DNA of 38,491 nucleotides from Candidatus Tharpella aukensis (GTDB lineage Bacteria > Desulfobacterota > Anaeroferrophillalia > Anaeroferrophillales > Tharpellaceae): positions 1 to 38,491 of the forward strand of contig JAGGWR010000032.1 of assembly GCA_021163445.1 (NCBI GenBank), read 5' to 3'. This document shows positions 8,975 to 38,491 of this stretch, in pieces. How positions within the stretch are numbered: position 1 is the first letter of the stretch; the number at the start of each line of letters is the position of its first letter. The notes beneath the pieces were generated by a model. The model had not been told where the DNA came from and made no database searches. It saw nothing but the letters and a program-made list of their open reading frames with translations. The position numbers and the translations under genes are program-made.

Positions 8975-11811
8975 GTCAACACCCCACATAGACACTGCCC
9001 GGTTGCCGACTCTTTTACTTTCGCCACCTCTTCCGGGGTGCCGCAGGCAACCAGGCGGCCGCCGCCAACCCCGCCGTCCGGGCCTAAATCGATAAGATAG
9101 TCAGCCGCCTTGATAATATCAAGGTTGTGTTCGATAACAATTACCGAATTGCCTTCATCAACCAACCTCTGCAAAACCTTGAGCAACTGTTTAACATCAT
9201 GAAAATGGAGTCCGGTAGTCGGCTCGTCAAGAAGAAAAAGGGTGCGCCCGGTGGCCCGTTTGGCCAACTCACGGGCCAATTTCACCCGTTGTGCTTCACC
9301 GCCGGAAAGAGTCACCGCAGCCTGGCCTAACGTCATATAGCCGAGACCGACATCTTTTAAAACCTCTAATTTTCCGATTACCCGAGGGATGGCGGCAAAG
9401 AATTCAGCCGCCTGATTAATCGTCATGGCTAACACTTCCGCAATATTCGACCCCTTATAGCGAACTTCGAGAACCTCACGGGTAAACCGCTGCCCGCCGC
9501 AGGAATCACACTTGACAAAGATATCGGGTAGAAAATGCATCTCGACCCGGGTAAAACCATCCCCTTTACAAGCTTCGCAACGACCTCCTTTAACATTAAA
9601 ACTAAAACGTCCCGGTTTATATCCCCGGATTCGCGCCTCCGGTAAACCGGCAAAAAGCTCACGAATCGGCGTAAAGAGACCGGTATAGGTAGCCGGATTG
9701 GAGCGCGGCGTCCGCCCGATCGGACTTTGGTCGATATTAATAACTTTATCGAGCTGATCCAGACCTGCAAGTTCCTGAAAAGAGCCGACCGGATAACGGT
9801 CACTGTAAAGATGATTATGCAGAGCCGGATAGAGAGTTTCGTTAATCAGACTGCTTTTTCCGGAACCTGAAACCCCGGTAACACAAAGCAGTAGACCAAG
9901 GGGAAATTTAACATCAATACTCTTAAGATTATGTTGTGATGCACCTTTAAGAGTAAGAGAATAGTGCCAATTCAGCGGACGCCGTTGCGGAATCTCAATT
10001 TTTTTGCGCCCGGAGAGATAGAGACCGGTCAAAGAATCGCCCGCCGCGATCTCTGCGGGTCTCCCTTGAGCAACCACCTCGCCGCCGAGACGCCCGGCTC
10101 CGGGCCCCATATCGATAACCTGATCCGCCGCCATAATCGTCTCCTGATCATGTTCGACCACGAGCAGCGAATTACCCAAGTCGCGCAGCTTCATCAAAGC
10201 CTTAAGCAGACGCAGGTTATCGCGCTGATGCAGACCGATACTGGGTTCATCAAGAACATATAAAACCCCGGTCAAACCCGAACCGATCTGGGTTGCCAGG
10301 CGGATACGTTGCGACTCCCCACCGGAGAGTGTGGCACTGGCCCGCTCCAGGGTCAAATAGTCAAGGCCAACATCAATCAAGAACTGCAAACGAGAAAAAA
10401 GTTCACCAAGAATCCGCCGGGCGATTGTCTGCTGAGCCGGAGGCAGTACCAGATCAGTTAAAAATTCCCGGGTTCGGGGCAACGATAAACAGGTTAATTC
10501 ATAGATATTCAGACCCGCCACTTTAACCTGAAGGCTATTCTGATTTAAACGGCTGCCCTGACAAAAAGAACATGGTTTGGGTGAAAGATAGCGCAGCAAT
10601 TCGCTGTCATTCTCGCCCGCCGCCTTCTCATAGCGCCTTTTCAAATTTGGAACAACCCCTTCAAATCTTCTCTCTGAAGAGTTCTGATAACGACCTTCGG
10701 CCAGCAAACCGGGGATTTTAACGCGCCCCGAGCCCGCCATAATCACCTTTTTAATCTTGGGCGAAAGTTCCGCAAAAGGAACCGTCAGCGAAAAATCGTA
10801 ATGCCGCGCCAGCGGTTCTAAAACTTCACTGCGATAGAAAGAGAGAGAGCGGCGCCAGGGAGCAATCGCCCCCTGATTGAGACTTAAAGCCGGATCGGGA
10901 ACAATCAAATCACTATCAAAAACCAGATCGCGCCCCAAACCGCTGCATTCGGGACAGGCGCCATGCGGATTATTAAAGGAGAAAAGGCGGGGAGAAAGCT
11001 CAGCAAAACTAATACCGCAATCACTACAGGCCAGACGCCGGGAGAAGAGCAGGCGCTCCCCATCGACAACCTGCACAACCACCAGATCGTCGGCTTTGTC
11101 CATCGCCAACTCCAATGAATCTACGAGACGACCGCGACTTTCGGAACTTGAAACCAAACGGTCAACCACCAACGAGATATCATGAAAACTATTGCGCTCG
11201 AGAAGCGGCGGCGAGTCAAGACGATAGATCTCACCATCCACCTCAATCCGCAAAAATCCCTGACTCTGCAAATCGCTGAAAAGTTTGCGATACTCCCCCT
11301 TGCGCCGACGCACGAGCGGAGCCATAACCATCAATTTAGTTCCGCCGGGCATTTTCTCAACCGCATCAGCAATCTGATCTACGGTCTGCGACGTAATCGG
11401 CTTCCCGCATTGCGCGCAGTAAGCGACCCCGACCCGAGCATAAAGCAAACGTAGGTAATCATAGATTTCAGTCACTGTTCCGACGGTTGAACGAGGGTTA
11501 TGAGAAACCTTTTTCTGCTCGATAGAGATCGCCGGAGAGAGACCCGAAATCTCATCAACATCGGGTTTTTCCATAAGTTGGAGAAACTGCCGGGCGTAGG
11601 CCGAAAGCGACTCAACGTAACGTCTTTGTCCCTCAGCATAGATCGTGTCAAAAGCCAGCGACGATTTACCTGAACCACTTAAACCGGTTATAACCACAAA
11701 CTGCCGCCGCGGTATGGATAAACTGATATCTTTCAGGTTATGTTCTCTGGCACCTTTAATAATAATCTCTTCCACAAACCACCATCTTGAAAATTTTTCT
11801 TGAAAAACCAT
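8971..11811 (-). CDS. uvrA: Excinuclease ABC subunit A
   Basis: 946 aa. It starts IKGAREHNLKDISL and has two ABC ATPase modules (GLSGSGKSS, GVSGSGKSS, LSGGE) plus zinc-finger Cys clusters. The true start may be the GTG at 11775. Confidence 0.95.
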   Translation of the reverse strand: MVFQEKFSRWWFVEEIIIKGAREHNLKDISLSIPRRQFVVITGLSGSGKSSLAFDTIYAEGQRRYVESLSAYARQFLQLMEKPDVDEISGLSPAISIEQKKVSHNPRSTVGTVTEIYDYLRLLYARVGVAYCAQCGKPITSQTVDQIADAVEKMPGGTKLMVMAPLVRRRKGEYRKLFSDLQSQGFLRIEVDGEIYRLDSPPLLERNSFHDISLVVDRLVSSSESRGRLVDSLELAMDKADDLVVVQVVDGERLLFSRRLACSDCGISFAELSPRLFSFNNPHGACPECSGLGRDLVFDSDLIVPDPALSLNQGAIAPWRRSLSFYRSEVLEPLARHYDFSLTVPFAELSPKIKKVIMAGSGRVKIPGLLAEGRYQNSSERRFEGVVPNLKRRYEKAAGENDSELLRYLSPKPCSFCQGSRLNQNSLQVKVAGLNIYELTCLSLPRTREFLTDLVLPPAQQTIARRILGELFSRLQFLIDVGLDYLTLERASATLSGGESQRIRLATQIGSGLTGVLYVLDEPSIGLHQRDNLRLLKALMKLRDLGNSLLVVEHDQETIMAADQVIDMGPGAGRLGGEVVAQGRPAEIAAGDSLTGLYLSGRKKIEIPQRRPLNWHYSLTLKGASQHNLKSIDVKFPLGLLLCVTGVSGSGKSSLINETLYPALHNHLYSDRYPVGSFQELAGLDQLDKVINIDQSPIGRTPRSNPATYTGLFTPIRELFAGLPEARIRGYKPGRFSFNVKGGRCEACKGDGFTRVEMHFLPDIFVKCDSCGGQRFTREVLEVRYKGSNIAEVLAMTINQAAEFFAAIPRVIGKLEVLKDVGLGYMTLGQAAVTLSGGEAQRVKLARELAKRATGRTLFLLDEPTTGLHFHDVKQLLKVLQRLVDEGNSVIVIEHNLDIIKAADYLIDLGPDGGVGGGRLVACGTPEEVAKVKESATGQCLCGVLT

Positions 11812-11870
11812 AGTTTTTCAGTTAGGAATAGAAAATCAAATATATTGATCTAATAATTAAGGACTCTGAT

Positions 11871-13205
11871 ATGATAAAAGTTCCCCTGTTCGCTTTCACC
11901 ATTATCTCATTTTTTCTCTACCTGTTTGCCCCCGCCACCGCCCAAGCCGGGGAGACCGATTTTCGCCTTATCTATATAGGCTCTCTCTCGGGCTATGTCA
12001 AACTCTGCGGTTGACACAAAAAACAGGCGGGCGGTCTAGCTCGCCAGAAAACCGCAGTCGATATACTACGCCGGGATGCAGGCCCCGGCAAGAGCCTCTT
12101 TATCAACTGCGGCAACCTGACCAAAAGAACCACCAAAAACGATTTCAAGGTCAAACAAGAGGTTCTCAAAACCGCCCTCCAAGGCTATAAAATGATCGGC
12201 ACCGAGGTTCTCACCCCGGGCGCCCAGGAGTTAATTTACGGTCACAAGATTATGGATTCTTTGCATGAACATACCCCCGCAACTACCTTTCTCTGTGCTA
12301 ATCTGGTCAATCCGCAAATTCCGGAGTTCGAGACCCATAAAGTTTTCACGATCAACAATAAGAGGGTACTGGTGACTTCGATTATCGATCCTGGTCTTGA
12401 AAGAAAAGCGATTCATGGCCTCCAGATCGCAGAGCCTCTTCCAGCCTTGGAAAAAATTCTCAAAATACCACATGATCTAGCCATTGCAGTTCTCCACTTT
12501 TCCGACGCCAAGGCGCGCCGCTTCATGCGCAGCGTTACCGGGCTTGATATCGCTATTTTTGCCACCCAACGGGGAACCATGAAAGAGAGTGAATTTATCA
12601 ATGGCTGCTGGCTGCTCAAAAATAACAACCACGGCAAAACCATCGGCTATCTGGATTGGGATTTTACTACCGGAAAACCGAGTACTGCCAAACTTATCCA
12701 GATTAACAAAATGGCCTATGATGCCGACTCGAAAATTGCCGAGTTGGTTAATAAATATGAGACCTGGGTGCGAAAGCACTATATTGAGATGGAAAAAAAA
12801 AGAGATAAAACCACAGCTGACCTGACAATTAAAATTCCCTATGTCGGCAGTCAGAACTGCGGCACCTGTCACCCCCAAATTACGGCCTCATGGCAAAACA
12901 CGGAACATGCCCGAGCTTACGCCAGCCTCCAGAAAAAATGCAAGGATTTCTGCCCTGACTGCCTGCCCTGTCACGTCACCGGCAGCCGGGAACATGACAA
13001 GCAGGGATTTCGTTCTCCGACCGACACCCCCAACCTCTTCAACATCCAATGTGAAGAGTGCCACGGCCCGGCCGAGGATCATATCAAAAATCCGAAATCC
13101 CCATATGGACTAAAAATTGATGCCTCGACCTGCACTATCTGCCACACCGCCAACAACGACCCGGAGTTCTTCTTTAAAGATGATGTCCAGTTGATCACTC
13201 ACTGA
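11871..13205 (+). CDS. Putative selenocysteine-containing periplasmic tetraheme c-type cytochrome: signal peptide, degenerate 5'-nucleotidase/metallophosphatase-like domain with a C-G-U motif, and a cytochrome c554-like 4x CxxCH domain
   Basis: The ORF track reports only 12192-13205, which carries CGTCH, CLPCH, CEECH and CTICH. The same frame is open upstream to a single TGA at 12012-12014. It continues to ATG 11871, which has an AAGGA SD and a signal peptide MIKVPLFAFTIISFFLYLFAPATAQA|GE. A SECIS-like hairpin follows the TGA. The conceptual product is 444 aa with Sec at residue 48. Confidence 0.7.
12012..12045 (+). promoter_or_regulatory. In-frame UGA plus candidate bacterial SECIS hairpin
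   Basis: UGA is at 12012-12014. The stem pairs GGCGGGC (12026-12032) with GCUCGCC (12039-12045): 7 bp including one G.U. The apical loop is GGUCUA (12033-12038), and its first G lies 21 nt from the U of UGA. The loop resembles the GGUC loop of E. coli fdhF SECIS. Confidence 0.65.
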
Positions 13206-13230
13206 AAATAGGCCGGAGCAGAAATAAAAA

Positions 13231-13258
13231 AGCAGAGAGTGTATCCACACTCTCTGCT
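13231..13258. terminator. Bidirectional rho-independent terminator between the convergent cytochrome and acyl-CoA ligase genes
   Basis: A perfect 12-bp stem AGCAGAGAGTGT / ACACTCTCTGCT has the loop ATCC. It is flanked by an A-run upstream (AAATAAAAA) and a T-run downstream (TTTTTTATTT). Confidence 0.85.
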
Positions 13259-13310
13259 TTTTTATTTAATCACAGTCATCATCTTCCGACAGATAATAAC
13301 AAACCAAAAA

Positions 13311-14900
13311 CTAAACCAAGCTCTGAAAAGCCTCTTTACGACCGGTATATTTCTCCCGCATCTGCGGTTTCATCAGTTTACCGGTCGGATTACGCATTAC
13401 CGTATCAAATTTGACAACCCGTGGCAACTTATAGGTCGAAAGCCGGGTTTTAGCAAACTCAAGAAGCTCTTCCTCAGTCAAGGTTTTCCCCTCTTTAAGC
13501 TGGACAATAGCCATTACCGCTTCAACCAGGCGTTCATCAGGAGTCCCGATACAAGCGACATCATCAATATCAGGATGTTCCATCAGAGCATCCTCGATCT
13601 CAACCGGGAAAATATTTTCGCCGCCGCTGGTAATCATATCTTTTTTTCGATCTACGATATAGTAGTAACCATCGGCATCGGTCTTTAAAAGATCTCCCGT
13701 ATAAAGCCAGCCATCCTTCAATGATTCCGTCGTCAGCTCAGGATTACCAAAATAGCCCTTCATCATCCGCGGCGTCTTAAAGATCAACTCACCAACCGCA
13801 TCAGGCGCAACCTCATTACCGGCAAAATCGACAAGCCTGGCATCAACCCCAAAAGTCGGTTTACCAATGGAACCCGGACGCTTTAAAACTTCTTCTGGAT
13901 AGAGGTTAAAAATCCCCCCGCCGCCGCCTTCGGTGATACCGTAGATATTAGAGACCCCGCAAGGCAATACTTTGACAAGACGTTTCATCACGTCAAAAGG
14001 CACCGGTTGAGCCCCAATTTCCATGTATTTCCAAGCTGAAAGATCATAATCTTCAAGTTTGATATCACCCTTATCGATAGCATTAAGAATGGCTATTGCA
14101 ATCGGCACAACAAAAAGGACATCGGTAACTTTCTCTTCAGCCAAAGCTTCGATAATCCATTTGGGATCCTTAAGATCGCGAAGAATTGTACCGGTAGCTC
14201 CGGTGGCATAAAAAGGTGCCCAGAGAAACATCGTGCCACTATGATAGAGGGGTAAAAAGAAGAGATAATTGTCGTTCTTTTCGACAAAATAGCTCATGCC
14301 GTTACCGATAGCCGTACTGTTGAGAGAGAAATGGGTGTGAAGCACCGGTTTCGGCTTGCCCGTGGTACCGGAGGTGAACATCATCGCCAGAGCGGCATCG
14401 GCCTCGACCTCAAGCAGAGCTTCGGAGGTATCGTCGTAGTCGGCCAGTACACAATAATCGATCATCCCTTCGCCGATTTTATCACCGACGCAGATGTAAT
14501 TCTTGACCGTCAAAAGCTCTTCCCGAACCGGTTCCACAACCGCCAGAAACTCGGAACCTAGGATAAAGGCTTTGGGATTGGAGACCTCGGCCGCAAATTT
14601 AATATCACTGCCGACAAAACGAAAATTGAGCGGCACGACAACCGCCCCGAGCTTGATGATGGCATAGTAACTGACAAGCCACTCCAGGCTGTTGTTTTGC
14701 AGGTGCATAACATAGTCACCCGACTCGATAGAGAGTTCATTTTTCAGATAATTGGCAACCCGGTTAATCGATTGATTAAACTCTTTCCAGGTTAAAGTGC
14801 GCCGTTCACCAGTCGCCGGGGTACGTTCGATTAAACAGGTTTTTTCAGGTAGATTATGGGCATGCAGGCAGGCATAGTTGGCATAATTCATAATTCTCAC
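13311..14900 (-). CDS. AMP-dependent acyl-CoA synthetase/ligase (class I adenylate-forming enzyme)
   Basis: 529 aa. It carries the AMP-binding motif MFTSGTTGKPKPV, plus YGITEGGG, GWLYTGDL and VDRKKDMITSGGENIFP. The substrate cannot be inferred. Confidence 0.88.
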   Translation of the reverse strand: MRIMNYANYACLHAHNLPEKTCLIERTPATGERRTLTWKEFNQSINRVANYLKNELSIESGDYVMHLQNNSLEWLVSYYAIIKLGAVVVPLNFRFVGSDIKFAAEVSNPKAFILGSEFLAVVEPVREELLTVKNYICVGDKIGEGMIDYCVLADYDDTSEALLEVEADAALAMMFTSGTTGKPKPVLHTHFSLNSTAIGNGMSYFVEKNDNYLFFLPLYHSGTMFLWAPFYATGATGTILRDLKDPKWIIEALAEEKVTDVLFVVPIAIAILNAIDKGDIKLEDYDLSAWKYMEIGAQPVPFDVMKRLVKVLPCGVSNIYGITEGGGGGIFNLYPEEVLKRPGSIGKPTFGVDARLVDFAGNEVAPDAVGELIFKTPRMMKGYFGNPELTTESLKDGWLYTGDLLKTDADGYYYIVDRKKDMITSGGENIFPVEIEDALMEHPDIDDVACIGTPDERLVEAVMAIVQLKEGKTLTEEELLEFAKTRLSTYKLPRVVKFDTVMRNPTGKLMKPQMREKYTGRKEAFQSLV

Positions 14901-21939: not shown

Positions 21940-22815
21940 ATGCGAAACGTCGGAATAATTACGAAAAAGAAAAATAAAAGAGCTCTTGAAATCGGCATTA
22001 AACTGTACGAGTGGCTCAAAGAACGCAAACTTTACGGACTTTGTGAAGAGGAGCTGGCGACCCCGCTAAAACTCCCAAAGCAAAGTAAAACAGAGATCTC
22101 TGAACAAGCCGACCTGATTGTTGTTCTGGGCGGCGATGGCACTCTGCTCAGTATCGCCCGTCACATAAACCGGAGCGACCTGCCAATTCTCGGAGTCAAT
22201 CTGGGAGGATTGGGCTTTTTAACCGCAATCACGCTGGATGAACTTTTCAAAGTCATGACTGAGGTTCTGGCCGGCAATTTTTCCTTAAGTCCGCGCATGA
22301 TTCTCAAAGTCACCCTCCACCGCAAGGGGCACCCCATCTCCAGTCATAATGTTCTCAATGATGTCGTCATTAATAAAGGGGCGATGGCCCGGATCATTGA
22401 TCTAAAAACAGTAATCGACGGCAAGTTCGTCAACACGTTCAAAGCGGACGGATTGATCTTTTCGACCCCGACCGGCTCTACGGGTTACTCCCTTTCGGCA
22501 GGCGGACCGATTGTCTACCCGACTTTGAATAGTATTACCGTTGCCCCGATCTGCCCCCATACGCTCTCTAACCGTCCACTTATTGTTCCCCCTGAAGTCA
22601 CGATTGAGACAACCTTGACTTCAACCGACAGCGATGATGTATTTCTAACCCTCGATGGTCAGGCCGGATTTTCCCTGCAAACTCTCGACAAGGTCACGAT
22701 CACCAGAGCCTGCCATGACATCAAACTTGTCACCTCACCGAGCAAGCCCTATTTTGAAGTTCTGCGCAACAAACTAAAATGGGGCGAACGCTATCGGATA
22801 AAGGGTGAAGGATGA
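21940..22815 (+). CDS. nadK: NAD+ kinase
   Basis: 291 aa with the motifs GGDGTLL, NLGGLGFL and STPTGSTGYSLSAGGPIV. Confidence 0.93.
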   Translation: MRNVGIITKKKNKRALEIGIKLYEWLKERKLYGLCEEELATPLKLPKQSKTEISEQADLIVVLGGDGTLLSIARHINRSDLPILGVNLGGLGFLTAITLDELFKVMTEVLAGNFSLSPRMILKVTLHRKGHPISSHNVLNDVVINKGAMARIIDLKTVIDGKFVNTFKADGLIFSTPTGSTGYSLSAGGPIVYPTLNSITVAPICPHTLSNRPLIVPPEVTIETTLTSTDSDDVFLTLDGQAGFSLQTLDKVTITRACHDIKLVTSPSKPYFEVLRNKLKWGERYRIKGEG

Positions 22816-24522: not shown

Positions 24523-24968
24523 TTCGTCGGGCCACCATAAAAGATGTAAAAATCATTCAGAGTACGCTCAAACATTATGCTGATCAGGGGCTGCTGTTGC
24601 CCCGTTCACTGAGCGACCTCTATGACAACCTACGTGATTTCATAGTTTACCAAAAGGAGGAAAAAATCTTTGGGGTTAGCGCTCTGCATGTCTGCTGGGA
24701 AGATTTGGGAGAGATTCGTTCGCTCGCCGTCCTGCCACCTCACACAAAACAGGGAATCGGTCGACAACTAGTCTACGATTGCGAAGAAGAGGCTGCAAAG
24801 CTGGGTTTAAAAAAAGTCTTCACCCTGACCTATCAGGAGAGTTTTTTTGCCGGTCTCGGATATCGGACAATCGACAAAAACCAACTTCCCCACAAGATCT
24901 GGGGTGACTGCCTGAAATGCGCCAAATTCCCCGACTGTGATGAGATCGCCATGATCAAAGAACTTTAA
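24519..24968 (+). CDS. GNAT-family N-acetyltransferase (ArgA C-terminal-domain-like)
   Basis: 149 aa. It has the acetyl-CoA binding-type motif IRSLAVLPPHTKQGIGRQL and overlaps recN by 4 nt. Confidence 0.75.
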   Translation: MIRRATIKDVKIIQSTLKHYADQGLLLPRSLSDLYDNLRDFIVYQKEEKIFGVSALHVCWEDLGEIRSLAVLPPHTKQGIGRQLVYDCEEEAAKLGLKKVFTLTYQESFFAGLGYRTIDKNQLPHKIWGDCLKCAKFPDCDEIAMIKEL

Positions 24969-26242
24969 TCATCTTCACCAACCACTTGGTTACGACCACG
25001 ATCCTTGGCTCGATATAAGGCTTGATCGACCCTTTCAACATAGCTCTCGAGAGTATCATCCACCTTTAATGTACCAACCCCGATACTAATAGTTACCAAA
25101 AAAGGTTTCCCCTTATAGGTAAAACGACTAGCTTCAACCTTCCGTCGAATACGATCGGCGACATCAAACGCTGACTGATAAGGAGTATGCGGCAGGATCA
25201 AGGCAAACTCCTCACCACCATAACGAGCCAAAACGTCAATCTCACGAATCTCCTTTTTCATCACGTCGCTTAATATCCGCAAAACCCCATCCCCGGTTCG
25301 ATGCCCATAGGAGTCATTAACTTTTTTGAAATGATCAATATCAATAATCGCCAAGGCCGTCGGCCGACCGTAACGCTGAAAACCGGCCATCTCATGCTTG
25401 ATCTTTTCGTCGTAAGCCCGGCGGTTATAGGTTCTCGTCAGAGGATCGATAATAATCTCCTGCTTAACCTTTTCCATCTGTTTTTTTAAGATTTCAACCT
25501 GTTTATTGGCATCATGTACCTGTTCCCGTGACTGTTGCACATCCGCCACCAGCTGCCGGGTTTTAACCTGCAAGCCTTTGGTTTGCTGCAAGAGCAACTC
25601 GCGAATTTCCTGAACTTCATTCAAAGTCCGGGCCTGCTGCAAGCGCTCGATACATTCATCCAGACCACTGTCAAAATCACCACTGCTAAGTAAAAGATCG
25701 GAGATCGAATCCGCCAAGATAGTGATGATCTTCTTCAGCTCATCCCGCTCCCGATCGGTCTCATCATCAAGAATAATACTGACTGAAAAAAGACGTTTAA
25801 ACTTGACGACGTAACGTTTCATATCAGAGAGTGCAGCGATATTTTTCAGGTCATCCCGACATTCCAGAAAAAGTTTCCGACTCTCTTCTTTATGCAGAGA
25901 TAGAGCTTCAATCTGATGCAATGCCATCCCCAGCAATGATTTCAATTCATCGACAAGGGAATGCAGATCGTTTTCAACGTTCGACTGGAATAACAGGTCA
26001 TTTTTCAATTGCTGTATAGACGCCAACAGACGATCAACATCAACCGGTTTCTCTTTGATCAACAGAGCTTTGACCTGCTTATGAATACGCTTAATCTGAC
26101 TCGCATTGGCAGCACTTACCAGAGACTCATGCAACGAACTCAAAACTTTGCCTGAATCATGACCACTGGATAGCGACCCCTGCAATGTTTTTAATAAAAA
26201 AATCGAAAGTTCTTTATACTCTCTAATCATATCAATATTCAT
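24965..26242 (-). CDS. Diguanylate cyclase (long coiled-coil/helical N-terminal region plus GGDEF domain)
   Basis: 425 aa. It contains DPLTRTYNRR, IDIDHFKKVND, and the active site with I-site REIDVLARYGGEEF (RxxD five residues before GGEEF). Confidence 0.88.
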   Translation of the reverse strand: MNIDMIREYKELSIFLLKTLQGSLSSGHDSGKVLSSLHESLVSAANASQIKRIHKQVKALLIKEKPVDVDRLLASIQQLKNDLLFQSNVENDLHSLVDELKSLLGMALHQIEALSLHKEESRKLFLECRDDLKNIAALSDMKRYVVKFKRLFSVSIILDDETDRERDELKKIITILADSISDLLLSSGDFDSGLDECIERLQQARTLNEVQEIRELLLQQTKGLQVKTRQLVADVQQSREQVHDANKQVEILKKQMEKVKQEIIIDPLTRTYNRRAYDEKIKHEMAGFQRYGRPTALAIIDIDHFKKVNDSYGHRTGDGVLRILSDVMKKEIREIDVLARYGGEEFALILPHTPYQSAFDVADRIRRKVEASRFTYKGKPFLVTISIGVGTLKVDDTLESYVERVDQALYRAKDRGRNQVVGEDD

Positions 26243-26265
26243 CTATACAACCTGTATGGTCCTGG

Positions 26266-27885
26266 TTATGAAATGCAAGAATCATCACGATGTTGTAACG
26301 GAAGCAAAACCCTAAAAGAACTTCCTTTACCAATTTCACTATTAAAACTGATGGTTCCCCTATGCTGATCCACTATTGTTTGAACCGTAAACAGACCCAA
26401 CCCGGTCGCCCCGCCCGCAACTTCAACTTTCTTGGTCGAAAAAAATGGATCAAATAGATGTTCTTGGCACTCTTGAGTTATGCCGACACCATTATCACTA
26501 ACTGAGAAAAAAATATGATTTTCATCCTCTAGCCCAGTAGCTATCGTAACCTGACCAACAAAACCATCTTCAGCTTGACCTTTGCGCTCTCGAATCGTCT
26601 GCACTGCATTAAGCATCAAGTTTAACACAACTTGTTGAATCGATCCTTTTTCCATTTGACCGGAGGGCAATTCTTCGGCAAATTTTTTGTTCACGCCGAC
26701 CTGTTCACGTTCCAACTCATAACGACTGAAGGAGAGGGCGTCATCAATCACCTGATTTAGAGAGAGCGGAAAAAACTCTTTACGTTCAGGGTGAGAAAAA
26801 ACCATCAGATTACTGGCCATCAAATTCAGAGCTTCGACCTGAACCCTAAGCCTGCCAAGCAGCATTAAATCTTTTTCATGCCCAGCGGGAATTGTTTCAA
26901 AACGGATCTCCAAAAGCTGTACAACCCCGTAGATTGCAGCCAGATAGTTATTCAGGTCATGAGCAATGCCAGCCGCCATTTGCCCGATACTGGCCATTTT
27001 TTCGGCCCTTATCACTTGGTCTTCCATCATTACCAGAGGGCTTGTATCATGAATATAGACTACCGCCTCATGGCTTTCATTACTCTCCTCATGAAAAATC
27101 GGATAGCAGTAAATATTAACATACTCACGTCCAGACCGACGCCCCTCAGCCCGTAAACGGGTCTGGCTTTGACCATCCTTCATACATTCACACGGCAGAC
27201 AGTCGGCACAAGGGCTTGAGCGCTGGCGAAAAACCTGATAACATTTTTTACCGACCAAATCTTTCGGCAAAGCATTAAAATAAGCCGCCTCAGCCCGGTT
27301 AATGGACTGAATGATATAATTATCATCAACCAGATAGAGACCGTTTTCGAGGGCATCAAGGGTTCGCCGATAACGCTGCCGACTTTTGCTGATCTTGTAA
27401 TTCTGTTTTTCCAAAACCCGGGAAAAGTTTTCCAGTTGCTGACTATGAGCAATTTGATCTTTATATTGACTATCGAGAAGATTTATTACATTATCAAGGA
27501 TTCCCAGATAACTGCCCATAGCCGTCTCCGAACCGGAGCGAACTTCCTCCTCACTGTCAACCTTCTCACTGTCAACCTTATGTTTTTCGACAAAAAGGAC
27601 AATTTCATCCAAACGAGCTCGAACCGGCCAAATAACTTTCGCCAAAAACCAAGAGAGGGCAACCGCCAACAGAGCATGGACAACCAGAGAGAAACCGAAA
27701 GAGTAGGTTGAAACGGGGAAAAAAAACATCCCGAGAACCGCAACGACATTAAGAATGATCAGTAATTTAATAAAAAATGTCACCTTGAAACGAGAAAAAA
27801 GATCAATATGCAACCCGATTCCTCCCCTCATCCTTGGCCTGATAGAGCTTTTTATCAGCCCGCTCAACCAGTGTTCCTGCGTCAC
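26266..27885 (-). CDS. Membrane-bound PAS sensor histidine kinase
   Basis: There are two TM helices, a PAS domain with a Cys cluster (KKCY...PCADCLPCEC), the H-box AAGIAHDLNNYL, and an HATPase_c domain (DNGVGI, GLGLF). The start is uncertain. Candidates are ATG 27885, ATG 27831, or TTG 27813; the last has the best SD (GGAGG, 7-nt spacing). Confidence 0.85.
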   Translation of the reverse strand: MTQEHWLSGLIKSSIRPRMRGGIGLHIDLFSRFKVTFFIKLLIILNVVAVLGMFFFPVSTYSFGFSLVVHALLAVALSWFLAKVIWPVRARLDEIVLFVEKHKVDSEKVDSEEEVRSGSETAMGSYLGILDNVINLLDSQYKDQIAHSQQLENFSRVLEKQNYKISKSRQRYRRTLDALENGLYLVDDNYIIQSINRAEAAYFNALPKDLVGKKCYQVFRQRSSPCADCLPCECMKDGQSQTRLRAEGRRSGREYVNIYCYPIFHEESNESHEAVVYIHDTSPLVMMEDQVIRAEKMASIGQMAAGIAHDLNNYLAAIYGVVQLLEIRFETIPAGHEKDLMLLGRLRVQVEALNLMASNLMVFSHPERKEFFPLSLNQVIDDALSFSRYELEREQVGVNKKFAEELPSGQMEKGSIQQVVLNLMLNAVQTIRERKGQAEDGFVGQVTIATGLEDENHIFFSVSDNGVGITQECQEHLFDPFFSTKKVEVAGGATGLGLFTVQTIVDQHRGTISFNSEIGKGSSFRVLLPLQHRDDSCIS

Positions 27886-28552
27886 TCATCGAAGCATCAT
27901 AAGCAGCCACCCCCAGACAAATCGTCAAATTGCCTTCAGTTTGACCCGCCAACAAAGGCTGTTGCTCTTGACCGGGAATCTCGGCCTTTTCAATCTCACG
28001 CCGGAAACGTTCAGCAACGCCGATCGTATCCTTAATCCCGCTATGACAAAGAATCACAAACTCTTCACCGCCATAACGCGCGACGATATCACTATGCCGA
28101 GCATTATCCAGCAAAAGATTAGCCACGGTTAAAAGCACCTTGTCACCTGCCGGGTGACCATGGGTATCATTATAGTTTTTGAAATTATCGATATCGATCA
28201 TAATCAATGAGAGTTCCCCGGAGTAGCGTTTAATACGTTCAAACTCTTCTCGTAAACGCTGTTGAAAATGACGATGGTTATAGAGGCCGGTCAACCCATC
28301 GGTAATCACCAGCTTACTTAAAACTTCCTCTTTCTCGCGCAGTTCAGCAATCAGAATAGCCTGCTGAAAAGCTGCTTCGCGCAAGATTTCAGCCGCGCTG
28401 CGGTCACATTGATCAGCCAGAATAACGCTCAACTGATCTTTCAATATGCGATTCTCTTCACAGGACAAAACCAGTTTTTTTTTCAATTCAGCCCGGCTCA
28501 TCCCTTCTCTATTTTTGACCATTCTTTTACCGACTCCATTTATCAATAACAA
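27803..28552 (-). CDS. Diguanylate cyclase (short coiled-coil N-terminus plus GGDEF domain)
   Basis: 249 aa. It contains DGLTGLYNHR, IDIDNFKNYND, and RHSDIVARYGGEEF (I-site plus GGEEF). The start is ambiguous: TTG 28552, ATG 28522 or ATG 28501. Confidence 0.85.
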   Translation of the reverse strand: MLLINGVGKRMVKNREGMSRAELKKKLVLSCEENRILKDQLSVILADQCDRSAAEILREAAFQQAILIAELREKEEVLSKLVITDGLTGLYNHRHFQQRLREEFERIKRYSGELSLIMIDIDNFKNYNDTHGHPAGDKVLLTVANLLLDNARHSDIVARYGGEEFVILCHSGIKDTIGVAERFRREIEKAEIPGQEQQPLLAGQTEGNLTICLGVAAYDASMSDAGTLVERADKKLYQAKDEGRNRVAY

Positions 28553-31748: not shown

Positions 31749-32720
31749 ATGAAAATCATAGAACTCGATAAAAGAAAACTGACCACCTACCCTCTGGCAT
31801 CGCGCCCGAGCAAAGTCAGTATAAATAATTTTGCGAGAAAATTAACCGGAAAAGAGAGCGTTACCGATCTGCTAGACAAATTGCCCGGTTTTCTCGCAGC
31901 CGATGACTTGAAGAACGTCATTAGCGCCATCATTTCAGCCCGCCAACAACAACGCCCGGTTCTGCTCGGCATGGGCGCCCACGTCATCAAGGTGGGACTG
32001 ACACCACTACTTTTACAACTCCTGGAAAAAGAGGTATTGAGCGGTATAGCCTTAAACGGGGCCGGAATTATCCACGACTTTGAACTCGCTTATGCAGGCC
32101 ACACATCTGAAGAGGTTGCCGACGGCATAACCGGCGGCAACTTCGGCATGGCTAAAGAGACCGGTGAACTCTTAAACCAGGCAATCTTAATCGGAGACCG
32201 GGAGGGACTTGGTCTGGGAGCTGCCGTTGGCCGCATGATCTGGGAAGAAAAGCTGCCACACCGTGAATTGAGCCTTTTAGGACAATGCTATCGTATGCAG
32301 ATTCCGATCACGGTTCATGTCGCCCTCGGCACCGATATTATTCATATGCATGCGGCCGCCGACGGAGCTGCTATCGGGAGCACCAGTTTCAGGGATTTCG
32401 ACAAATTCTGCAACATGGTGGCCCAACTTGAGGACGGCGTCTACATCAATCTCGGTTCGGCCGTAATTCTGCCCGAAGTTTTTCTAAAAGCGATCTCACT
32501 GGTTCGCAACCTCGGACATCAAGTAAACAACCTGACTACGGTCAACATGGATTTTAACCGCCACTATCGATCTTTTGAAAATGTTGTTAAACGGCCGACC
32601 CTCGGCAACGGCCGGGGTTATCAGCTTATCGGCCACCATGAAATAATGTTCCCTCTGTTGGTCGCCGGAATCTTAGCCCAACTTGATGGCGTCGTAAAAA
32701 GTTCCGATATCCTGCGATGA
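31749..32720 (+). CDS. Uncharacterised protein, possibly with a deoxyhypusine-synthase-like fold
   Basis: 323 aa. The segment VLLGMGAHVIKVGLTPLLLQLLEKEVLSGIALNGAGIIHDFE parallels the DHS pattern (FLG...SGLR...VD.IVTTAGG.EED). This is judged from memory only. The last 12 codons and the stop are encoded by repeat A2. Confidence 0.4.
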   Translation: MKIIELDKRKLTTYPLASRPSKVSINNFARKLTGKESVTDLLDKLPGFLAADDLKNVISAIISARQQQRPVLLGMGAHVIKVGLTPLLLQLLEKEVLSGIALNGAGIIHDFELAYAGHTSEEVADGITGGNFGMAKETGELLNQAILIGDREGLGLGAAVGRMIWEEKLPHRELSLLGQCYRMQIPITVHVALGTDIIHMHAAADGAAIGSTSFRDFDKFCNMVAQLEDGVYINLGSAVILPEVFLKAISLVRNLGHQVNNLTTVNMDFNRHYRSFENVVKRPTLGNGRGYQLIGHHEIMFPLLVAGILAQLDGVVKSSDILR

Positions 32721-37686: not shown

Positions 37687-38491
37687 ATGAGTTACGAATT
37701 TCTAAAAATCAGTGTTAACAAAGGGGTTGCTAATATCAGCCTGAACCGGCCCCCGGCCAACTCTTTAAATGTCGCAATGGTGGCAGAGCTTGACCAGGCT
37801 TTTGATGAAGTTGCCGCTAACGACGATGCCAGAGTTCTGGTTATCACCAGTGAAATCCCTGGCTTTTTTGTCGCCGGTGCCGACATCAAAATGTTTAACG
37901 AGATGACCGCCTACGATGCCTGGGAAATCTCCGGCGAACTCCAACGCGTCAACCAAAAACTGGAAGATATGCCGAAACTTACAATCGCCGCACTCGGCGG
38001 CTATGCTTTAGGCGGCGGACTGGAACTGGCACTGGCCTGTGATTTCCGCTTCATGGCTGAAAGTGTAACAATTAAAGATAAAGTGAAAACCCCGACTCTC
38101 GGTCTGCCGGAAACAACTCTGGGAATCTTGCCTGGTGCTGGCGGCACCCAGCGCCTGGCTCGTCTCATCGGAGCCAAACAGGCTCTCTACTTCATCGCCA
38201 CGGCAAAAAATCTCACCCCGCAGGAAGCCTTGAAACTGGGTATTGTTCAAGAGCTGATGCCGGGCAGTGAACTCAACGAAAAAACCATCGCTTTTGCTGA
38301 AAAAATGGCAACCAAGGCAACAATCGGCATCGCTATGGCTAAAAAAGCGATCTATCAAGGATACAATCAGGATACCGCGACGGCCATGCAGATCGAACAG
38401 GATGCTTTCATGAAAGCCTTTGCCAGCGAAGATGCGAGCGAAGGTTTGAAGGCTTTTGTCGAAAAAAGACCGGCAGTATTTCAAGGCAAGT
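37687..38491 (+). CDS. Enoyl-CoA hydratase/isomerase (crotonase) family protein, 3'-truncated by the window edge
   Basis: This gene is absent from the ORF track because no stop codon lies in the window. My own translation from ATG 37687 gives MSYEFLKISVNKGVANISLNRPPANSLN...ALGGGLELALACDFRF...GLPETTLGILPGAGGTQRL...EGLKAFVEKRPAVFQGK, which carries the canonical crotonase motifs. The minus-strand ORFs at 37692-37956 and 38008-38484 are antisense shadows. Confidence 0.9.
   Translation, partial: MSYEFLKISVNKGVANISLNRPPANSLNVAMVAELDQAFDEVAANDDARVLVITSEIPGFFVAGADIKMFNEMTAYDAWEISGELQRVNQKLEDMPKLTIAALGGYALGGGLELALACDFRFMAESVTIKDKVKTPTLGLPETTLGILPGAGGTQRLARLIGAKQALYFIATAKNLTPQEALKLGIVQELMPGSELNEKTIAFAEKMATKATIGIAMAKKAIYQGYNQDTATAMQIEQDAFMKAFASEDASEGLKAFVEKRPAVFQGK

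Follow-up and report, generated by a model that had tools for sequence, protein, structure and literature searches.

An in-frame UGA and an fdhF-like hairpin in Candidatus Tharpella aukensis mark a very probable exported tetraheme selenoprotein of the UshA-like CxU family

Introduction

Among the selenoprotein families listed as previously described in the 2008 Global Ocean Sampling (GOS) selenoproteome paper is one entered as "COG0737, UshA-like, CxU" (PMC2398784). The same family appears in reviews of 2022 and 2026 (PMC9312934, PMC13188914), the later of which cites the NCBIfam model NF041198, "UshA-like (seleno)protein" (UshA_like_PCGU). We found no biochemical function reported for this family in the literature. 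Function is better described for ExtKL/MccSep, an exported pentaheme protein shown in 2026 to be a selenocysteine-dependent polysulfide reductase (PMC13510729). Here we analyze a gene related to the first of these systems and comparable in some respects to the second. It lies at positions 11871 to 13205 of a 38,491-nucleotide (nt) stretch of Candidatus Tharpella aukensis DNA (contig JAGGWR010000032.1, forward strand), the whole of which is called the window below, and it contains an in-frame TGA at which gene finders break it in two.

Results and discussion

A single reading frame interrupted by TGA

The best explanation of the region, and one that we consider very probable, is that 11871-13205 constitutes a single monocistronic gene and encodes an exported member of the UshA-like Cys-x-Sec selenoprotein family (Sec, selenocysteine), with UGA-48 recoded. 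The parts of the gene on which this explanation rests are as follows.

11871..13205, forward strand: proposed full coding sequence of the selenoprotein precursor, 444 amino acids (aa) plus stop, with UGA-48 as selenocysteine (from translation and the best match to NF041198).
11859..11863, forward strand: Shine-Dalgarno sequence AAGGA, 7 nt 5' of the ATG at 11871 (read from the sequence).
11871..11948, forward strand: signal peptide for the Sec export pathway, MIKVPLFAFTIISFFLYLFAPATAQA, with predicted cleavage after AQA-26 (pattern read from the sequence).
12006..12014, forward strand: Cys46-Gly47-Sec48 (TGC GGT TGA), the C-G-[U/C] motif of the family (from the family alignment).

From the ATG at 11871 the frame runs for 47 codons, which encode MIKVPLFAFTIISFFLYLFAPATAQAGETDFRLIYIGSLSGYVKLCG, to the TGA at 12012-12014, then for 396 further codons to a stop TGA at 13203-13205, giving 445 codons with the stop counted. 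The lister of open reading frames (ORFs) divides the gene into 11871..12014 (47 aa) and 12192..13205 (337 aa), the second of these beginning at a methionine codon, M12192, that is separated from the TGA by 59 codons without a stop. The coordinates and features given in the initial annotation (ATG, AAGGA, TGA, frame, four CxxCH motifs, and hairpin) all proved exact on rereading, and its central proposal, a single hidden selenoprotein gene with a recoded UGA-48, is borne out by conservation of the TGA in homologues, by the Sec/Cys pair, by the contrast in hairpins between Sec-type and Cys-type genes, and by the coding character of the stretch upstream of the TGA.

A divergent subclade of a known selenoprotein family

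The 444-aa product has its best NCBIfam match in NF041198 (E = 1.8e-65) and shows both the homology to UshA and the C-x-U motif (C46-G47-U48) of the COG0737 UshA-like CxU proteins. It shares with the NF041198 proteins a signal peptide, a UshA/5'-nucleotidase-like domain, a C-G-U/C motif followed by x5-GG, and a C-terminal c554-type tetraheme domain, with model positions 354-519 aligning to window residues 275-436. Also shared are the Sec/Cys dimorphism and the placing of a GGUCU loop on Gly-Leu codons, as in L075 and L079, two canonical members of the Desulfobulbia type. Unlike them, the window protein has 444 aa against the 519 positions of the model (513-521 aa in canonical members), a difference due mostly to the lack of an inter-domain insertion of about 75 residues; Leu replaces Pro before the Cys, and the motif-I Asp kept by most members is Ser. 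Ahead of the invariant C-G-U, the window protein and 14 of 15 subclade members carry Leu, and L093 has Pro. The window protein scores 221.5 bits against NF041198, below the curated 275-bit equivalog cutoff, and L093 scores 210.4, compared with 586.5 and 657.4 bits for L075 and L079. Because it falls below the cutoff, we place the window protein in a divergent and shorter subclade, named LCGU after its motif, which consists of 444-aa-type proteins from uncultured Thermodesulfobacteriota. In a library of representatives at 50% identity this subclade is essentially one cluster (P0013, 61% identity), and short fragments aside, the next matches have at most 37% identity. The SecA sequence of the window likewise points to an uncultured lineage of "Deltaproteobacteria"/Thermodesulfobacteriota known from metagenome-assembled genomes, with about 65% identity or less to named genera such as Deferrisoma or Desulfomonile.

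The wider family is large and phylogenetically broad. The 396-aa sequence after the TGA retrieved 2894 cluster representatives (50% identity) at E ≤1e-10, a count that includes cytochrome-only matches, and a scan of one genome per species yielded 80 loci from many phyla, with titles that include Planctomycetota, Verrucomicrobiota, Acidobacteriota, Myxococcota/Myxococcales, Nitrospirae/Nitrospinota, anammox bacteria, and Armatimonadetes/Fimbriimonadales. The suggestion in the initial annotation that a Sec-exported multiheme cytochrome with selenocysteine would be an unusual selenoprotein class is therefore not upheld, since UshA-like CxU proteins are already in the literature and in NF041198 and other exported multiheme selenoproteins are known. 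The gene is not the founder of a new class; it is a previously misannotated member, from a divergent subclade, of a known selenoprotein family.

MccSep/ExtKL (NF040886; PDB 9wt8) resembles the window protein in being a periplasmic multiheme c-type cytochrome in which one Sec works beside a Cys, and it provides a precedent, in the same bacterial phylum, for heme-fed Sec chemistry (polysulfide and selenite reduction) (PMC13510729). The two differ in that MccSep has five hemes, no UshA-like domain, a Sec (U325) near the C-terminal part, and a heme-ligating Cys239. The window protein, with four CxxCH motifs, does not belong to MccSep/ExtKL: it scores 23 bits against NF040886, where the cutoff is 250, and does so over the heme region only; the profile match to 9wt8 in the PDB has E = 0.002.

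The TGA is conserved within a coding sequence

A search of 5.8 billion proteins returned 48 close homologues (P0001-P0048), all of 302-408 aa and covering at most 88% of the 444-aa conceptual product, a coverage that identifies the database entries as N-terminally truncated. DNA was fetched for 14 loci among them; a metagenome scan with the window protein yielded only two loci. At the level of DNA, TGA occupies the identical codon in 15 of 15 close homologues (46-96% identity), with a signal-peptide ORF on its 5' side and about 396 codons on its 3' side. In the fetched loci the upstream signal-peptide-like ORF ends in ...Y[I/V]G[SGA][LI][SN]GY[VL]x[LP]CG and the downstream part has 394-399 codons, and n, h, and c regions like those of the window signal peptide precede the TGA in all close homologues. 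Over the 18 codons 5' of the TGA, 11 homologues show 46 synonymous and 31 nonsynonymous codon differences, and this excess of synonymous change indicates that the stretch evolves as coding sequence. On the other side, the residues encoded from the TGA to M12192 can be aligned to the beginning of the 5'-nucleotidase fold, with the GGxAR helix and then xxGN/D. Homologues do not begin consistently at the equivalent of M12192, the outcome that the initial annotation named as telling against a recoded UGA: their called starts differ arbitrarily, all of them after the TGA, and conserved coding sequence lies upstream. The 48 records bear the names "hypothetical protein," "multiheme c-type cytochrome," or "mono/diheme cytochrome c family protein," and on several contigs (L083, L087, and L091-L093) the signal-peptide part is called as a separate ORF of 45-49 aa.

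These observations bear on the possibility of two products, in which the TGA at 12012 is a true stop that ends a secreted 47-aa peptide and an independent cytochrome is translated from M12192 or another downstream start. Every public gene call in the subclade is written in this way, as products of 317-408 aa, with separate ORFs of 45-49 aa on several contigs, and TGA is a normal stop in the organism. A c-type cytochrome made in this way, however, would have no signal for export. The 59 codons before M12192, which it would discard, are conserved protein aligned to the 5'-nucleotidase fold (the GGxAR helix and the position of the GD motif), the called starts vary arbitrarily among homologues, and the Cys-type homologues are continuous here. 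We therefore regard two separate products as highly improbable and return to the reading of one continuous gene.

Nor does the genetic code of the organism explain the interruption. TGA is the ordinary stop of 8 of the 32 window genes, which shows that the standard code is in use, and on this ground a reassignment of UGA to Trp or Gly was rejected. A scan of the window for TGAs that join two long open stretches gave 12012 as the only one taken to join parts of one gene. At 22813, the TGA is the stop of an NAD kinase gene and is followed in frame by an SMC_N/AAA protein read as recN; the other four joining TGAs were dismissed by eye as artefacts of noncoding frames.

Sec and Cys alternate at residue 48

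In the 84 loci with a readable motif, the codon for residue 48 is TGA in 29 and TGC or TGT in 55, within an invariant C-G-[U/C]-x5-G-G. The TGA type is not confined to the relatives of the window gene, as 14 of its members lie outside the close subclade in other lineages. Cys-type homologues are continuous through the point of the TGA; the distant full-length proteins P0050 and P0051, for example, have PCGC aligned to LCGU of the window. Homologues do align across residue 48, the check that the initial annotation had proposed, with TGA in the close ones and Cys in the distant full-length ones. An alignment of 28 full-length sequences (A3) has C46, G47, C/U48, G54, G55, G81, and all four CxxCH motifs as its invariant positions, in line with the earlier statement that the recoded residue sits beside a Cys.

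The alternation suggests a third possibility, that a Cys codon (TGC or TGT) has mutated to TGA in a pseudogene or has been missequenced in the assembly. A single-base change converts TGC to TGA, and 55 of the 84 loci have Cys. Yet 15 independent assemblies share this TGA, at protein identities as low as 46%, with no other disruption of the frame and with purifying selection on both sides; the 14 further TGA-type members belong to other lineages, and an fdhF-loop hairpin accompanies TGA far more often than it accompanies TGC or TGT. Conservation effectively refutes this explanation, to which we assign almost no likelihood. What the conserved TGA specifies in the continuous gene is suggested by the same alignment: since the position is strictly Sec or Cys in the family, Sec is favored over Trp.

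A probable fdhF-like SECIS hairpin follows the TGA

In bacteria, the selenocysteine insertion sequence (SECIS) presents a G (and a U) in an apical loop about 16-37 nt from the UGA. The following feature lies downstream of the TGA at 12012.

12026..12045, forward strand: putative SECIS hairpin, stem 12026-32/12039-45 (7 bp, one G-U), apical loop GGUCUA at 12033-38 (from the minimum free energy [MFE] fold and homologues).

This hairpin, GGCGGGC/GGUCUA/GCUCGCC, starts 11 nt 3' of the TGA and forms the core of the MFE fold of 12000-12075, which has an energy of -24.3 kcal/mol (z = -2.33; 4 of 200 shuffles were as stable). Its first loop G, at 12033, lies 21 nt from the U of the UGA, so that with its 7-bp stem, its GGUCUA loop, and a loop start at +22 the hairpin has the spacing of a SECIS. 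Comparable hairpins (at least 7 bp, at least 5 of them G-C, and a loop of 4-7 nt starting with G) occur across the window at 0.29 per kb per strand, and 15 of its 1619 TGA trinucleotides are followed by one with a loop start between +16 and +37.

The fdhF element of E. coli reads TGACACGGCCCATCGGTTGCAGGTCTGCACC, as a check of 5419 genomes of the species confirmed. With counting begun at the U of the UGA, its loop bases G22, G23, U24, C25, and U26 recur at identical positions in the window, which agrees with the fdhF-type spacing and loop that had been noted originally (GGUCU at +22..+26 in both). The two elements also share the start UGACAC and a GC-rich upper stem directly under the loop. They differ in stem sequence, which is unrelated, and in the bulged U, of which the hairpin predicted for the window has none in the upper stem; a counterpart of the lower fdhF helix is likewise missing or unconserved. 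An outer 8-bp helix of the window fold, 12005-12012/12050-12057 (CUGCGGUU/AACCGCAG), encloses the hairpin and pairs the U of the UGA; it is found in the window only and, not being conserved in the 14 close homologues, was rejected as part of the SECIS.

The hairpin is kept in close homologues, as the initial annotation had asked to see. Nucleotide conservation alone proves little here, because the loop bases are the GGU-CUA codons of a conserved Gly-Leu. More telling is a comparison of Sec-type with Cys-type genes for the same GGL peptide. Gly-Leu is written as GGU-CUN in 23 of 29 Sec loci and in 3 of 33 Cys loci (p = 1e-8), and in 8 of the 14 Sec loci outside the close subclade (p = 0.001). 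Among Sec loci the loop is closed by a contiguous stem with a mean length of 5.1 bp (4.5 bp for the 14 distant ones), and the mean for Cys loci is 3.2 bp (p = 0.003 for distant Sec against Cys loci). Mean folding z-scores are -1.6 for the Sec type and -0.3 for the Cys type (p = 1.7e-5). At least one compensatory pair was seen: L032 has CUGGGC/GUCCAG where L075 has UUGGGC/GUCCAA, through a synonymous Leu change and an Arg-to-Lys change on the opposite arm. Four Sec-type loci (L007, L012, L048, and L058) are without the GGUCU loop and have another 7-bp hairpin at about +25 to +41 nt after the TGA, for example CUCGCUC-GGC-GAGCGAG, with the loop GGC; the sequences of these four point to a possible second style of SECIS within the same protein family.

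Together with the NF041198 score below cutoff, several points weigh against the selenoprotein assignment. A large part of the hairpin doubles as coding sequence for the conserved peptide GGL[A/S/P]R, which confounds nucleotide conservation taken by itself, and the contrast of Sec and Cys codons addresses this confounding only statistically, the 15 close loci not being independent. A search of Rfam gave no SECIS-type match, either for the whole window at gathering thresholds or for 11980-12090 at E ≤10; as no Rfam model fits this type of hairpin, we do not count this result against a SECIS. Finally, selA, selB, selD, and tRNA-Sec were not found within the 38-kb window.

The last point also leaves room for a reading in which the UGA is read through without selenium, either by a near-cognate tRNA (Trp or Cys) or with Cys inserted by the Sec machinery, and SelB systems of bacteria can insert Cys under selenium limitation. 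Several lines of evidence argue for selenocysteine instead: the residue is strictly Sec or Cys in the family, simple read-through would have no use for a SelB-type hairpin at the canonical distance, and the family is accepted as selenoproteins in curated resources. Selenium-free read-through thus appears very unlikely, and insertion of selenocysteine at UGA-48 is the reading that we retain below.

A degenerate metallophosphatase domain fused to a tetraheme cytochrome

The protein encoded across the TGA has two domains, the second of which carries the heme motifs.

11961..12770, forward strand: degenerate metallophosphatase-fold domain of the 5'-nucleotidase/UshA/SoxB type, residues ~31-300 (profile, Foldseek, and alignment).
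12831..13202, forward strand: C-terminal tetraheme cytochrome c554-like domain, residues ~321-444 (Pfam PF13435 and profile).
12858-72, 12960-74, 13050-64, and 13131-45, forward strand: heme motifs CGTCH, CLPCH, CEECH, and CTICH, respectively (read from the sequence).

Profile, Foldseek, and Pfam results agree with the 5'-nucleotidase-like domain and tetraheme cytochrome described originally. The only Pfam match is Cytochrome_C554, PF13435 (E = 6.4e-12; 46.7 bits, cutoff 20.8). A family profile matches 5'-nucleotidases, CD73, and UshA at E = 4e-25 to 1e-19 (UshA structures at about 1e-19), SoxB at 1e-16, cytochrome c554 (1bvb) at 2.7e-22, and the multiheme structure 6i5b at 9e-30; the window protein alone gives weak NCBIfam matches to UshA (NF007109, E = 3.3e-5) and SoxB (E = 2.5e-7). 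In the AlphaFold (AF2) model of the Cys homologue P0050, the predicted local distance difference test (pLDDT) score exceeds 90 across most of the N-domain, and Foldseek with this model finds UshA and SoxB at E of about 1e-15.

The N-domain fold is the same as that of CD73 and venom 5'-nucleotidase, and the "C...GGxAR" loop-helix that follows motif I in the family aligns with their "C..C.GGVAR." In 5'-nucleotidase, UshA, and CD73, by contrast, the place of the tetraheme cytochrome is taken by a C-terminal substrate-binding domain. The C-G-U motif occupies the loop that connects strand beta-1 to helix alpha-1, the place at which CD73 and snake-venom 5'-nucleotidase have a loop with a Cys ahead of GGVAR. 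The ligands of the di-metal site, read through alignment A3 and a profile alignment to CD73, are replaced: motif I D-x-H is S38-L-S40, the D of motif II (GD) is N82, and GNHE is G117-A118-Q119-E120. The window protein therefore lacks the D-x-H, G-D, and G-N-H-[DE] motifs of active di-metal phosphoesterases, and hydrolase chemistry is unlikely. The same replacement separates it from the thiosulfohydrolase SoxB, with which it has the N-terminal fold in common. The four CxxCH motifs of the C-terminal domain are in the order of cytochrome c554 (Nitrosomonas europaea, 1bvb), from which the window protein differs in that its domain is fused to one that bears selenocysteine. The only invariant or nearly invariant His residues outside the motifs are H346, H404, and H444. 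With three such candidates for the distal ligands of four hemes, one of the hemes may have five-coordinate iron or be bound by some other residue. The N-domain is thus a phosphatase fold reused as the scaffold of a Cys-Sec site and fused to a four-heme wire.

Proposed expression and mode of action

The steps of expression proposed here (recoding by SelB, export by the Sec pathway, and heme attachment by Ccm) are taken from the established bacterial pathway. A ribosome arriving at UGA-48 would meet, 11 nt downstream, a hairpin presenting GGUCU at the fdhF distance; SelB-GTP-Sec-tRNASec would bind this hairpin, and Sec would be inserted in place of termination. The 444-aa precursor would be exported by the Sec pathway, with the signal peptide cut after AQA-26, and the Ccm system would attach four c-type hemes in the periplasm. 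The hemes could then pass electrons to or from a Cys46-Sec48 selenenylsulfide/selenol center, which, by analogy with MccSep, might attack a chalcogen-type substrate such as polysulfide, a thiosulfate-like species, or selenite. We infer by this analogy that the window protein is most likely a periplasmic heme-fed Cys-Sec redox enzyme. The presence of three distal His residues for four hemes offers weak circumstantial support for a redox role of the hemes and the Cys-Sec pair.

On the other side of the balance, the redox function is purely inferred; in the P0050 model the CGC loop has a pLDDT below 50 and the cytochrome domain is also of low confidence; and the neighborhoods of the fetched LCGU loci contain no conserved operon partner gene. 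As MccSep has been shown to be a polysulfide reductase (2026), a heme-fed Cys-Sec center on a dead phosphatase scaffold is nevertheless a reasonable and testable target, and, given a SECIS loop identical to that of fdhF, E. coli or Geobacter could prove a workable expression host.

A bolder idea, which we hold to be possible and rather unlikely, is that the LCGU subclade is a functionally distinct selenoenzyme and not a mere NF041198 ortholog, with the Cys46-Gly47-Sec48 loop lying against the cytochrome domain and acting at a five-coordinate heme or as an axial ligand. The features that set the subclade apart in this respect are its 444-aa length, the change of the motif-I Asp to Ser, the lack of the inter-domain insertion, the monocistronic arrangement beside uvrA, and its place in an uncultured Thermodesulfobacteriota lineage. 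The supply of three distal His candidates for four hemes belongs to the same argument. Were the idea correct, the subclade would provide a second, independently evolved center combining heme and selenocysteine for periplasmic sulfur or selenium redox chemistry, alongside MccSep.

For annotation, the consequence is that the signal peptide, the first beta-strand, and selenocysteine are all missing from the public records of the subclade (48 clusters). The records stay truncated because their scores against NF041198, the curated model that could restore them, fall short of its cutoff.

Gene neighborhood and other features of the window

The gene is preceded by candidate promoters and followed by a hairpin and a convergent gene.

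11829..11857, forward strand: candidate sigma-70-like promoter TAGAAA-17-AATAAT (consensus scan, 9 of 12 matches; weak evidence).
11787-11814, forward strand: second candidate promoter (consensus scan).
13222..13267, no strand assigned: strong hairpin with A-run and U-run flanks, probable bidirectional intrinsic terminator (fold).
13311-14900, reverse strand: convergent AMP-binding gene, 3' of the selenoprotein gene.

The first candidate promoter lies within the intergenic region between uvrA and the selenoprotein gene, which are divergent. The hairpin at 13222-13267 has the core GCAGAGAGUGU/ACACUCUCUGC, and the fold of 13203-13275 has an energy of -29.6 kcal/mol (z = -7.36; none of 200 shuffles was as stable). 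It was not listed by a consensus terminator scan; its fold and flanks suggest an intrinsic terminator that probably acts in both directions and serves the convergent AMP-binding gene as well. Across the subclade, uvrA is divergent upstream, and on the downstream side lies mnmG/GidA in the same orientation or, alternatively, a convergent AMP-binding gene with argJ behind it.

Cys-type homologues, mostly with titles from Planctomycetota or Verrucomicrobiota, have other neighbors. Their gene is followed by one for a secreted protein of about 990 aa with a thioredoxin domain and HEAT repeats, which in L030 overlaps the stop of the Cys-type gene, and upstream are a DUF4159 protein and a large protein without a Pfam domain. 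The loci with these conserved neighbors are as follows.

L030, 4208-7180: Cys-type locus with conserved neighbors.
L045, 2031-2753: Cys-type locus with conserved neighbors.
L009, L023-L025, L027, L029, L033, L047, L050-L053, and L074: further Cys-type loci with conserved neighbors.

The thioredoxin neighbor hints at thiol/disulfide chemistry for the CGC motif and lends weak circumstantial support to the proposed redox center.

Two window ORFs, 31749-32720 (forward strand, 323 aa) and 38008-38484 (reverse strand, 158 aa), gave no Pfam match at E ≤1e-5. The remainder of the window consists of housekeeping genes, read from their domain matches as iPGM, a glutamate-5-kinase/aldehyde-dehydrogenase pair (proB/proA), nadD, rsfS, rlmH, rex, uvrA, argJ, secA, NAD kinase, recN, GGDEF/histidine kinase, proC, nadA, flavodoxin, and rubrerythrin. 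A run of signaling genes at 24965-28552 (reverse strand) encodes a GGDEF protein, a PAS-histidine kinase, and a second GGDEF protein, and the last two of these ORFs overlap by about 80 nt (27803-27885).

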